This document shows positions 13,433-47,561 of a DNA stretch of 64,000 nucleotides, piece by piece. The stretch's first letter is position 1; the number at the start of each line of letters is the position of its first letter. The notes under the pieces are model-generated. The model saw only the letters and a program-made list of their open reading frames with translations, made no database searches and had not been told where the DNA came from. Location: the IMG/VR virus record IMGVR_UViG_3300025585_000040, positions 13,652-77,651 of that record; one strand, 5' to 3'. Origin of the DNA: a virus. The translations under genes and the position numbers were made by a program.

Positions 13433-14323
13433 GTGCCCCTAGTGATGGATGAAAAAGTCGCAGAAATCTCGGCGAGAGGCGAAGTAGGGCGAAAAGTTTA
13501 TACAGAGTACTCTGCCGAGAAAGATTATCGGCAGTTCATGGATTATCGGTCGGATGGAGATACCCGCCTAACAATCAATGGCTCCCGTCACTACAAGACT
13601 CCCTACGGAGCACTACCTTCAGTCACGACAATCCTGTCTGCAACTGGCGGAAATAAGGCAGCATTAGAGAGGTGGGCTAAAAAAAATCCTGGTGGGAGAG
13701 AGGCTGCCGCAGCACGGGGAACCAAGGTTCACTCCCTGATGGAGGAGTATCTTCTCGGCATCAACAAGAATCCAGTCATCGAAGATGAGGAGATCGCTCA
13801 GTTCTGGAACGGTCTTCCCGAAAACCTCGATAAGCTCGGTCGCGTGATCTGGGCGGAAAATCCAGCTGGTGACGCATTCCCATGGACAATGGGAGGTGAC
13901 GGAATTAGCCGGGTTTGGCATCCAGGTGTAAAAGAAGGTGAAAATTGGGGGTGGGCAGGAGCCCCCGACATCGTGGCGGAGTACAAAAACAAAGTCGTAC
14001 TGGGAGATCTCAAGACCTCAAACGGCCCTTACTACGCAAAATGGCCCGGTCCGGACACCATCAAATCGGAGTACGGGATGAAGCGGGCTGGCTTCATGAA
14101 ATACCAAAAATGCATGATGCAGATGGGTGCGTACGCTATGGCGTTGGAGCACACAGTAGGTATCATCCCTGAAATTCTGATGATTTTCGTCGCCACGAGG
14201 GACCGTTCCCAGGTGTTCGCGGTCCAGGGCGGAACCATCGAGAAGTACAAACAGAAGTGGCTCGATGCCGTAGAGAAGTACTACAGCGAAATTCTACCCG
14301 GATTGGCGGAAGAAGACTCCTGA
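13433..14323 (+). CDS. PD-(D/E)XK exonuclease
   Basis: LPSVTTIL, RGTKVH, AGAPD...DLKTS, QMGAYA. Confidence 0.85.
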   Translation: MPLVMDEKVAEISARGEVGRKVYTEYSAEKDYRQFMDYRSDGDTRLTINGSRHYKTPYGALPSVTTILSATGGNKAALERWAKKNPGGREAAAARGTKVHSLMEEYLLGINKNPVIEDEEIAQFWNGLPENLDKLGRVIWAENPAGDAFPWTMGGDGISRVWHPGVKEGENWGWAGAPDIVAEYKNKVVLGDLKTSNGPYYAKWPGPDTIKSEYGMKRAGFMKYQKCMMQMGAYAMALEHTVGIIPEILMIFVATRDRSQVFAVQGGTIEKYKQKWLDAVEKYYSEILPGLAEEDS

Positions 14324-34120: not shown

Positions 34121-34204
34121 GCCACCATGCCGGAACGGTCTACGGATCGCACTTAAAATGCGTCGGGAGTTTCTCCCTTGTGGGTTCGAATCCCACTGGT
34201 GGTA
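34121..34204 (+). tRNA. trnL: tRNA-Leu(UAA), CCA not encoded
   Basis: GCCACCA/TGGTGGT acceptor, loop CTTAAAA, long variable arm, GTGGG-TTCGAAT-CCCAC. Confidence 0.92.
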
Positions 34205-45999: not shown

Positions 46000-46275
46000 C
46001 TACTTGTTCTTCTTCTCGTATTCTTCTTTGGTCATCCACTCTTGTTCACCCCAGCGCTTCAGTGACTCCTGACCTTCGGTTTCTTCACCCCTGTAACCAC
46101 CACCTCGTTTTTTGTACGCCTGGGCGAGTAGTTGTGCTTTCCTAGCCGAATAAATTAGTTAGCCTTACGGCTACGACCACTCTCCACTCTTGCCACCTTT
46201 GGACCCACGCATGATCTGCTGTTTCAGTCGTTCACGAAGATCAGGTTTGGTATAGCGCCCTTTGTTTTCAGCCAT
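46000..46275 (-). CDS. DUF5872-like basic protein (82 aa) interrupted by a 27-nt coding gap; candidate programmed translational bypass
   Basis: Codons 1-34 MAENKGRYTKPDLRERLKQQIMRGSKGGKSGEWS, gap 46173..46147, then ARKAQLLAQAYKKRGGGYRG...NK stop; joined halves restore the family motif GxWSARKAQ. Confidence 0.8.
46147..46176 (-). other. putative ribosomal bypass element (take-off UCG, UAG hairpin, landing UCG)
   Basis: TCG TAGCC GTAA GGCTA ACTAATTTAT TCG on the - strand. Confidence 0.7.
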
Positions 46276-46873
46276 AACTACCTCTGGTTTTCAGATAATT
46301 TAAAGAGTTTTCCAATGTAATTATGCTATCACCCAATAATCCAATTCCCCGGTTACAGTTTCTGCATAAGAGTCCGCGCACATCTCCAGTTTCATGGTTG
46401 TGGTCGACGACTAAACCTTGAGTTGGCTTTGGTGGCGTACAGCAAATTGCACAGGCACCGTTTTGGGCCTCGAGCATAACCTCATACTGATCTTTAGTTA
46501 TTCCATGTCGGTGATATTTTTTATAGTCCTCGTGACACTTTCTGTCTGATTCAAGTTTTTTGTCCTTGTATTCCGGGTGTAAATCAACCCATTTACCCCA
46601 TGCGCGGGAAGAGCATTCTTTGCATTTAGACCTTAAGTACCTCTTCCCGTCTTGAACGCGATAAGAGAACTGATCCCACTGAAGAATTCTTTTGCACGCA
46701 CTACATTCCTTTTTCCCTGAGGTACCGTACAGTTCTACCAGACGGACGTGAACACTGGATTTACAGTTTCTGCAAACGGTATCGCGTCTTACAGCACCGG
46801 TCTTAGTTTTACCTTTTGAATGAAAAAGGTCGTAAGGCAGCGCTTTCTTACATTCTTTACAGGTCTTAAGCAT
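46268..46873 (-). mobile_element. Endonuclease VII-type (HNH-fold) free-standing endonuclease
   Basis: Two N-terminal CxxC...CxxC zinc ribbons; QNGACAIC...LVVDHNHETGDVRGLLCRNCNRGIG. Confidence 0.9.
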
Positions 46874-46910
46874 GCGCCTTTCGGATTTTTAAAATCCTAG
46901 CACAAAAAGC

Positions 46911-47561
46911 TCAAGTCATTAATTGTTGATTTTGGCCAAATGCCGAAGTTAGAAGTGCAGCAGGATCAATCATTGATTTAATCTGCGGCTGCTGAGAGAT
47001 TAAAGAATTTTGAATATAAGACGAAAGGAAATCAGCCCCTGGCTCCTCTTCTTTCTTTTTACGTCCACCCATAACGTAAATATAAGTATCTCCGCCTTGA
47101 GTAGATGCTTGCGGAGGAGATTGAGCTACGGATTCTGCTGGCTTACCTCCTTTCGTATGGAGAAGACGAATCTCGTAAGGCTTACCCTCAATATCCGTAG
47201 TTTTAATCGTACCGTAGCCTTTCCCAGGGGTGAATGTGCCTGGACCTTCCCAAGTCAGTGGAGTCTTAGCGGCGATTGCATAATCTTGCCCCATGTGTTG
47301 AGTCGAGGCTCCAGCTGTTGGGGCTGTACGTTTGCCGAAGGGAGAAGTAATTGTGAAGCTTGGCTTCCATTCCTCTCCCTGTTGCTGCCAAAGTGCCTTC
47401 TGCTCTTTACCTACCTTCAATCGGGTTAGAAGTGAGCGTATAGTACCTGGATCAATATACTTACCGTCCTTTAGTACACGGACATCCAGGTGCGGTCCTG
47501 TGGTGGGGAAAATATCCTCACCAGGGGCAGCAACGTAACCTACGTCCAGCCGTGAAGTCAC
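46911..47561 (-). CDS. M23 peptidase-like protein, apparently circularly permuted
   Basis: TTGPHLD...IDP precedes ITSPFGKR...HMGQD. Confidence 0.65.
   Translation of the reverse strand: MTSRLDVGYVAAPGEDIFPTTGPHLDVRVLKDGKYIDPGTIRSLLTRLKVGKEQKALWQQQGEEWKPSFTITSPFGKRTAPTAGASTQHMGQDYAIAAKTPLTWEGPGTFTPGKGYGTIKTTDIEGKPYEIRLLHTKGGKPAESVAQSPPQASTQGGDTYIYVMGGRKKKEEEPGADFLSSYIQNSLISQQPQIKSMIDPAALLTSAFGQNQQLMT

Follow-up and report, generated by a model that had tools for sequence, protein, structure and literature searches.

A candidate programmed ribosomal bypass within an HNH nuclease cassette of cyanophage-like viruses

How can two halves of a gene be read as one protein when the nucleotides between them hold stop codons? 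This question is raised by a small gene on the minus strand of an uncultured virus, located in a stretch of 64,000 nucleotides (positions 13,652 to 77,651 of the IMG/VR record IMGVR_UViG_3300025585_000040) that is hereafter called the window and to which all coordinates refer. In this gene, 34 codons are followed by a gap of 27 nucleotides (nt) and then by 48 further codons. The comparison of the locus with its relatives is best explained by a homing-endonuclease cassette that includes a programmed ribosomal bypass, a reading to which we assign a probability of roughly 0.78. The gap and an adjacent HNH nuclease gene are present together and absent together, and the gap outlasts the decay of the nuclease. 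Both halves of the gene are under purifying selection, and the design of the insert stays fixed while its length and spacer change.

Layout of the interrupted gene and conservation of its gap

The features of the gene, from its start to its end, are as follows:

46174..46275, minus strand: upstream half ("exon 1"), 34 codons, MAENKGRYTKPDLRERLKQQIMRGSKGGKSGEWS, with its ATG at 46275-46273 and ending GAG TGG TCG
46176-46174, minus strand: proposed take-off codon UCG, the last codon of the upstream half
46147..46173, minus strand: coding gap of 27 nt, TAG CCG TAA GGC TAA CTA ATT TAT TCG
46160..46173, minus strand: predicted hairpin UAGCC-GUAA-GGCUA, 14 nt, whose 5' arm opens with the UAG stop
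46150..46159, minus strand: AU-rich spacer, ACUAAUUUAU, without a UC dinucleotide and hence without an earlier serine codon
46147..46149, minus strand: proposed landing codon UCG, the same as the take-off codon
46000..46146, minus strand: downstream half ("exon 2"), 48 codons, ARKAQLLAQAYKKRGGGY...EYEKKNK, followed by TAG

An earlier note on this DNA had described an ATG, 34 codons, a 27-nt gap, a landing TCG and 48 codons, with a stop that directly follows take-off and opens the 5' arm of a UAGCC-GUAA-GGCUA hairpin; each coordinate was confirmed, the hairpin at 46173-46160. The downstream half opens with GCT AGG AAA GCA CAA, remains open from 46146 to 46003 and ends with the TAG at 46002-46000. 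Codons 1, 3 and 5 of the gap are in-frame stops (UAG, UAA and UAA), and all three frames are closed within or just past the gap, so a single frameshift cannot connect the halves. The first canonical in-frame start in the downstream half is a Met (in WM) located eight codons before the stop. The earlier note had also found this half to be without an evident start of its own, which agrees with the alleles, among which no in-frame start is conserved. In the upstream half, whose 34-residue product is basic and conserved, a purine-rich GGAGAG lies immediately 5' of UGG UCG.

The gap is real DNA and not an artefact, because contigs from three independent studies (X5, marine, 2024; X6, riverine, 2025; X7, freshwater, 2023) span it without insertions or deletions (indels). 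Separately, the X7 freshwater sample contains a 13.3-kb contig, at a depth of 183, that matches the window only at 46149-46185 (37 bases, 3 differences) and diverges from it on both sides; this contig represents another phage, much more abundant, that carries a gapped allele of its own.

The DUF5872-type label previously given to the joined product stands in part. Searched with X in place of the stops, the product read across the gap clearly matches phrog_17747 in one stretch (residues 5-62, E 6e-17, 62.8 bits), whereas its match to the Pfam family DUF5872 (PF19197) is borderline, at 20.3 bits against a curated cut-off of 27.5. Gapless relatives score 25.6, 25.7 and 29.4 bits against DUF5872, with positions 4-67 aligned unbroken. 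The host gene is described here as DUF5872-like; it encodes 77 amino acids (aa) and sits between two structural-region genes. A protein-guided scan of IMG/VR identified 12 gapless alleles that read ...GGKPGQWSARKAQLLAQAYKKRGGGY..., i.e., WSARKAQ without interruption, in agreement with the earlier prediction that gapless alleles would read WSARK, and one further gapped allele, L014, in which the gap measures 29 nt rather than 27. The inserted gap falls in the most conserved motif of the family, WS|ARKAQ. An AlphaFold2 model of a gapless homologue, built from a 10-row alignment, was too poor to place the junction (mean predicted local distance difference test score 53; predicted template modelling score 0.22).

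Further gapped alleles were collected through DNA-pattern scans of IMG/VR, JGI metagenomes and GTDB genomes, with the window included. The first collection pattern fixed the stem, the UAG and the UGG, and the second scan fixed only the upstream codons and TAG. The gapped set comprises at least 70 loci, at least 58 unique alleles and at least 26 different gaps, and two further gapped loci come from contigs of metagenome-assembled genomes (MAGs). The metagenome scan, in which 100 of the 118 matches listed were chance, contributed variants and is no measure of abundance. Unless another set is named, the counts below refer to the 58 unique alleles listed.

Gap length varies among 23 nt (2 alleles), 24 nt (16), 27 nt (21), 28 nt (8), 29 nt (8), 32 nt (2) and 33 nt (1). 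The length is not a multiple of three in 20 of the 58, which rules out readthrough and means that the frame is reset at the landing codon. Despite this variation, the design is constant, and its recurrence goes far beyond chance. Take-off is UCG followed by UAG in all 58, a count to be read with the fact that every collection pattern demanded TAG or TAGCC. The landing codon is UCG in 55 alleles, UCU in 3 and AGY in none. The same serine is encoded by AGC, UCA, UCC or UCG in gapless alleles, and the majority base at third positions elsewhere in the gene reaches a frequency of only 0.57-0.70, compared with the invariant serine codons of the gapped alleles. Of the 51 family hits from the scan that did not demand the hairpin, 49 retain the exact stem. 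Stable tetraloops close it, represented by GUAA (36 alleles), GUGA (15), GGGA (2), GCAA (1), GAAA (1) and UUAG (2), and conform to GNRA in 55 of the 58. The conservation that the earlier note expected of gapped alleles is thus present, with matched serine codons and UAG in every allele and the stem in all but one.

The spacers are 87% A+T and varied (19 kinds in IMG/VR), being composed of A, U and C with at most one G (the UGA classes). None of the 42 IMG/VR alleles tabulated contains UC before the landing codon; shuffled spacers carry UC 38% of the time, so that its complete lack from 19 different spacers would arise by chance with a probability of approximately 6e-6. The same 42 alleles all have GGR GAR ahead of UGG UCG, a position at which gapless alleles show mixed Gly codons and mostly Gln. 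As a speculation, GGRGAR may act as an upstream Shine-Dalgarno-like element. A 17-mer of the core searched in IMG/VR revealed no other host gene, 44 of its 51 matches being in this gene and the remaining 7 in ordinary open reading frames in another frame.

Both halves have remained intact. The upstream half consists of 34 codons starting with M in 56 alleles and contains an internal stop in none, and the downstream half is open in all 55 complete alleles. The pairwise ratio of nonsynonymous to synonymous differences per site (pN/pS) is 0.21 at pS 0.84 for the downstream half and 0.26 at pS 0.57 for the upstream half, in agreement with the purifying selection that had been predicted for both. 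Every allele collected encodes ARKAQ immediately past the landing codon, its codons varying synonymously, although this invariance is partly by construction, as two of the three collection scripts demanded ARKAQ and the third a looser form. Judged from these alleles, the downstream half is predicted to be translated.

Several individual alleles depart from the common pattern. The allele at L122:4477-4530 (plus strand), found again on the metagenome contig L130, has a 24-nt gap without the hairpin (TAGCTATAATATTAAATAATTTCG); it keeps UCG, UAG, UCG, a full HNH gene and intact halves, and its UAGCU can pair with GGCUA just past the landing codon. In the metagenome contigs L232 and L240, the gap measures 32 nt and the loop is UUAG rather than GNRA; upstream of the gene, L240 lacks a nuclease gene, and in L232 the gene stop is lost and the frame continues into the next gene. 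In L024 and L035, which have 23-nt gaps and a GGGA loop, the frame of the downstream half, followed backwards, meets no stop across the whole gap as far as an ATG within the GAATGG of the upstream half. These two alleles could in principle also be read by a -1/+2 shift, which no other length class permits. Finally, L125:1016-1100 (plus strand) deviates by additional or missing bases in the upstream half, has a mismatch in the stem (GGCCA), lacks a clean landing codon, and is either a decaying allele or a noisy assembly.

The gap and a nuclease gene come and go together

Two features of the window describe the sequence upstream of the gapped gene:

46268..46873, minus strand: free-standing HNH homing-type endonuclease gene, 201 aa, Endonuclease VII family (PF02945, E 6e-23; PHROG 'endonuclease VII', E 1e-34)
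46260..46912, minus strand: insertion of ~650 nt relative to L010, consisting of a spacer, the HNH gene and a new start for the gapped gene that extends its N-terminus by 5 codons

The HNH catalytic motif (DHNH...CxxCN) is intact, and the gene is present as a single copy in the 77.6-kb viral genome. Its last codons (..RGSYG*) hold the GAGG Shine-Dalgarno sequence of the gapped gene, and its stop overlaps the gapped gene's ATG. L010, the closest gapless relative, is collinear with the window in a pairwise alignment, with ~75-85% identity on both sides. Only two indels distinguish them, namely the ~650-nt HNH block and the 27-nt gap. The flanking proteins of the two loci are 84-98% identical, and the gene order is up260 - up216 - [HNH] - gene - dn115.

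This association extends across the family. The 51 gapped IMG/VR loci include 36 with a full HNH gene, 2 in which it is cut by the contig end, 9 with 3'-end remnants, 3 with none and 1 without upstream sequence. Full-length or remnant HNH genes are therefore found in 47 of the 50 gapped loci that have upstream sequence, and in 0 of the 12 gapless loci. The remnants measure 13, 21, 28, 29, 42 or ~56-57 codons, or 20+30 codons around an internal deletion; the last arrangement is that of L092, which retains the first 20 and last 30 HNH codons. All nuclease-loss loci (L026, L052, L074, L117, L068, L092, L021, L059 and L070) keep the ..RGSYG* end, codons that may be retained for their Shine-Dalgarno sequence. 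As a separate observation, L024, L030, L041, L077 and L083 contain a second, diverged Endonuclease VII-type HNH gene (30-49% identity) located 1.5-5.5 kb from the cassette.

The 5-codon N-terminal extension of the upstream half is present in all gapped and no gapless alleles. HNH distances correlate with those of the upstream half (Mantel r 0.63) and with those of exon 2 (r 0.36, P 0.001), and the upstream half, whose divergence follows that of the nuclease more closely, seems to move together with it. Among the 30 full HNH genes, the mean nucleotide distance is 0.25, and no pair combines near-identical HNH genes with a diverged exon 2. The divergence of the HNH genes, the co-divergence of exon 2 and several independent nuclease deletions that leave the gap and both halves intact indicate a long residence of the cassette, during which the gapped gene would have been kept working. 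With frequent cassette jumps, selection on exon 2 could predate the invasion, and dN/dS was therefore not used as the sole argument. By these comparisons, the gap is one part of a putative mobile cassette with an Endonuclease VII-type HNH gene.

In the +1 frame, the core of the hairpin, AGC CGU AAG GCU, encodes S R K A (window 46160-46173, minus strand; also in L129 and L227) and resembles a second, degenerate version of the target codons W-S-A-R-K-A. The gap may have originated from a partial target duplication when the cassette was inserted.

Could the cassette instead have broken a dispensable gene, with the intact downstream half reflecting a recent invasion or copied alleles? Disruption of genes by selfish elements does occur, the closest relatives comprise 12 gapless alleles and a single gapped one, and L125 looks degraded or noisy. 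However, the low pN/pS of the uniformly open downstream half is reached at near-saturated synonymous divergence, and the cassettes are not recent clones, since their mean difference is 25% and their divergence runs parallel to that of exon 2. The nine nuclease-loss loci, despite several different deletions, keep the gap design and both halves. Moreover, nothing about a dead gene would explain why seven length classes all preserve matched codons, the UAG, the hairpin and a spacer free of UC. We thus consider inactivation unlikely, although slightly less so than the other alternatives.

The bypass reading and its rivals

Under programmed bypass, an Endonuclease VII-type HNH gene would have integrated immediately upstream of a small phage gene that is conserved (DUF5872-like, phrog_17747), bringing with it a replacement 5' gene part and a short untranslatable insert in WS|ARKAQ. 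The ribosome would read 34 codons and halt with peptidyl-tRNA(Ser) on UCG and the UAG in the A site. There, the 14-nt UAGCC-GNRA-GGCUA hairpin would fold and shield the stop from the release factor, while the tRNA releases the take-off codon. The ribosome would then slide across an AU-rich spacer offering no other UC until the tRNA re-pairs at the next UCG or UCU, and translation would restart at GCU, giving an 82-aa protein that reads ...GEWS-ARKAQ.... A 27-nt hop with an 82-aa product is what the earlier note had proposed, and the comparative evidence supports it. Bypass is favored because the matched codons, the UAG in the A site, the stop-containing tetraloop hairpin and the AU-rich run correspond to the design of phage T4 gene 60. 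The hairpin is also present in the predicted minimum-free-energy fold.

Several points weigh against bypass. The case for a joined protein is drawn from sequence comparison. Among public sequencing runs, no RNA run containing the stretch was listed, and the metatranscriptome run X23, which belongs to the study of a DNA run that does contain it, gave no match. No mini Shine-Dalgarno (GAG/GGA/AGG/GGG) is found 5-7 nt 5' of the landing codon; the only AGG/GAGG is 9-19 nt upstream, within the hairpin's 3' arm. Local folds of the gap with its flanks are not significantly better than those of shuffles (z -1.5 to -2.0), and the hairpin has 5 base pairs (bp) compared with ~10 in T4. The L122/L130 allele is hairpin-less yet otherwise intact, so either the hairpin may not be essential or the allele may be dead. 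The stem is invariant and shows no compensatory changes, and its conservation could be owed partly to common descent or to a sequence-specific role. Additionally, every scan fixed parts of the flanks and would miss variants with another take-off context, and the alleles are not independent, so the counts are inflated. Long-range pairings (GAGUGG with the spacer; UAGCCG with CGGCUA at landing) were considered as further structural elements and rejected as conserved features, as they are not kept among alleles.

Removal of the gap from the RNA by a small intron-like excision and ligation is improbable. Such a process would account equally well for the intact halves, the variable gap length and the missing start codon, and the conserved hairpin could then serve nuclease recognition. 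Nevertheless, 23-33 nt is far under the size of any self-splicing intron, a search of Rfam returned no match to a known RNA family at E values up to 1, and no splicing enzyme is evident in the cassette, whose sole open reading frame is the HNH DNA nuclease. Excision also leaves unexplained the stop right after the first serine codon, the identity of the two serine codons and the absence of UC, which are hallmarks of re-pairing.

It is similarly improbable that two products are made, with a 34-aa peptide ending at the UAG and the downstream half arising through re-initiation or internal initiation, after which the halves may associate. Other homing-endonuclease insertions do yield functional split genes (MobA, MobE; bioRxiv 10.1101/2022.08.31.505936), and an in-frame AUG six codons past landing (ARKAQM) occurs in 16 of the 42 alleles. 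In contrast, 9 alleles have no start within 45 codons, and the window has no canonical start until the late Met described above. No Shine-Dalgarno sequence precedes the downstream half, because the spacer contains only A, U and C, and in the 28-nt class UAA UGA stands directly before the landing codon in the downstream frame. The ARKAQ residues between the landing codon and the occasional AUG are themselves kept at the protein level with synonymous changes, within the limits set by the collection scripts.

Stop-codon readthrough or one ribosomal frameshift has a negligible chance of being correct: the window gap is in frame (27 nt) and in the 23-nt alleles L024 and L035 the downstream frame is free of stops from a point within the upstream half, but the window has three in-frame stops and two other closed frames, no single rule fits 38 gaps that are multiples of three alongside 20 that are not, and the added residues would fall in the most conserved motif of the family.

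Relation to known bypass systems and to the carriers

Efficient programmed bypass has had essentially one natural model since 1988. To our knowledge, the reading of a gene by a ribosome hop has been shown at the bench for T4 gene 60 and very few others. The 50-nt bypass of T4 gene 60, within a MobA element, was reportedly the subject of work by Huang et al. in 1988 and Bonocora et al. in 2011. Full-text literature searches returned no paper on the element described here, and the sole DUF5872 paper is unrelated. A 2022 survey by Manning & Atkins reported dozens of gene 60 relatives, all in the same topoisomerase gene with MobA, found MobA elements exclusively in Topo2L and described the bypass cassette as unique (bioRxiv 10.1101/2022.08.31.505936).

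The element in the window shares with T4 gene 60 the matched codons, the UAG directly past take-off and the location of the gap inside a highly conserved motif. The T4 genome (NC_000866) reads GAT GGA TAGCC TTCG GGCTA TCT, bearing out the earlier statement that the stem is the same and the tetraloop different; UAGCC-tetraloop-GGCUA forms an identical 5-bp stem at the tip of the T4 hairpin. The gap's 3' portion is AU-rich in both, and the commonest spacer here ends in AUUAUU like that of T4. Similarly, in both systems an HNH nuclease gene and a substituted N-terminal coding segment move along with the gap, which some lineages retain after losing the nuclease. Among the relatives of gene 60, the two codons can differ at the wobble base, loops of the GNRA and UUAG types occur, and gap length goes down to 20 nt (bioRxiv 10.1101/2022.08.31.505936); wobble differences, such loops and short gaps are all seen here too.

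There are also differences. The host gene is a 77-aa DUF5872-like gene rather than a topoisomerase gene, and it is interrupted without being additionally split in two. MobA elements interrupt the large subunit of topoisomerase II within its Toprim domain and split it, with C-terminal extension (CTE) and N-terminal extension (NTE) tails, features that the present element does not share. The nuclease belongs to PF02945, Endonuclease VII, and is set apart by this Pfam assignment from MobA, for which VSR and GIY-YIG replacements are known; its phage relatives are annotated as 'endonuclease VII' or 'HNH', and none is listed beside gene 60. The codons are Ser UCG here and Gly/Asp in T4, the gap measures 23-33 nt compared with ~50, and the loops are mostly GNRA in place of UUCG. 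The 5-bp hairpin starts at the stop and leaves out the take-off codon, and the mini Shine-Dalgarno 5-7 nt before landing is missing. In addition, the nascent chain is only 34 residues long, without likeness to the nascent-peptide signal of gp60, and the hosts are cyanophage-like.

The structural work on T4 provides a reference for the proposed take-off. In cryo-electron microscopy of gene 60 take-off, a 12-nt hairpin with three G-C pairs and a UUCG loop, the stop included, occupies the A site, and weakening this hairpin lets release factor 1 terminate (PMC5462505). It is this tip of the T4 hairpin whose counterpart is conserved in the present alleles. The MobA insert shields its own genome by splitting the nuclease target (bioRxiv 10.1101/2022.08.31.505936). 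By analogy, the insert in the window probably also splits a nuclease recognition site within the WSARKA codons and protects the carrier genome.

Other systems offer partial parallels. The terminase gene of Streptomyces phage phiHau3 contains 10-nt gaps led by UUA, whose bypass was proposed and in part demonstrated, with a junction peptide seen in E. coli (Antonov et al. 2023, PMC10732093). Both cases have a short gap within a phage gene, a slow codon in the A site at take-off and local RNA structure, which in phiHau3 draws the landing site close. The trigger in phiHau3 is a rare sense codon (bldA tRNA, host development) and there is no homing endonuclease, whereas here a stop codon with a tetraloop hairpin stands at take-off and the gap belongs to a mobile cassette.

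The byp inserts of Lang et al. 2014 are reportedly 27-55 nt long. They are found in mitochondrial genes of Magnusiomyces capitatus (Lang et al. 2014, cited in PMC10732093) and, by description, resemble the present gaps in being numerous, natural, short and untranslated, with matched codons, a hairpin, mobility and many variants. As far as that description extends, they differ in belonging to a eukaryotic organelle, in being GC-cluster-like, in occurring in many genes and in having no associated nuclease gene. With the homing endonucleases of introns and inteins, the element shares a selfish nuclease in a conserved gene together with a device that restores the product and destroys the target. 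In contrast to these, the device is no RNA intron (27 nt, no Rfam match) and no intein (stops in all frames), and the nuclease gene is free-standing, upstream of the gene. Our comparison places the element as a putative programmed bypass in a free-standing HNH homing cassette, which would work like gene 60 outside a MobA element, the topoisomerase target being absent.

If this reading is correct, the locus would represent a second family of bypass, in another gene, with another nuclease family and in cyanophage-like viruses. Its at least 26 natural gap variants (23-33 nt) offer a ready-made mutational series. They point to the long stem, the internal Shine-Dalgarno and the 50-nt length as dispensable, and to the matched codons, the stop, the tip hairpin and the absence of a decoy codon as indispensable. 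Bypass would then be a recurring way for selfish nucleases to enter conserved genes, beside introns and inteins. Similar gaps are probably under-annotated in viral metagenomes, because gene callers split or drop such genes. A broader proposal, for which we would put the odds slightly short of even, is that the 14-nt hairpin, the codon pair and the UC-free spacer constitute a portable minimal bypass module, without an internal Shine-Dalgarno, a long stem or perhaps a special nascent peptide. Unrelated homing endonucleases would use this module as a general 'immunity insert' in conserved genes. Its origin would lie either in remote descent from the gene 60 cassette, with a change of gene, nuclease and host phylum, or in a second, independent invention of the same stem.

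The virus itself is an uncultured relative of Synechococcus phage S-EIVl, which, with a portal identity of 53%, was the only match among 50,697 phage records; its hosts are presumably cyanobacterial. Searches of these 50,697 records with tblastn and blastn identified no isolate with the gap, only the gapless allele in S-EIVl and unrelated Endonuclease VII genes. GTDB genomes gave six matches, of which four were chance occurrences in ordinary genes and two were small contigs binned into Bacteroidota-type MAGs; the latter were rejected as host evidence. The only tRNA gene found in the window is a tRNA-Leu (anticodon UAA) at 34121-34204 on the plus strand. The gapless homologue of S-EIVl (L126:2501-2785; KJ410740.1, 15196-15480) matches from 63 nt upstream of the annotated coding sequence (AHV82147.1), whose deposited start is probably too far downstream.

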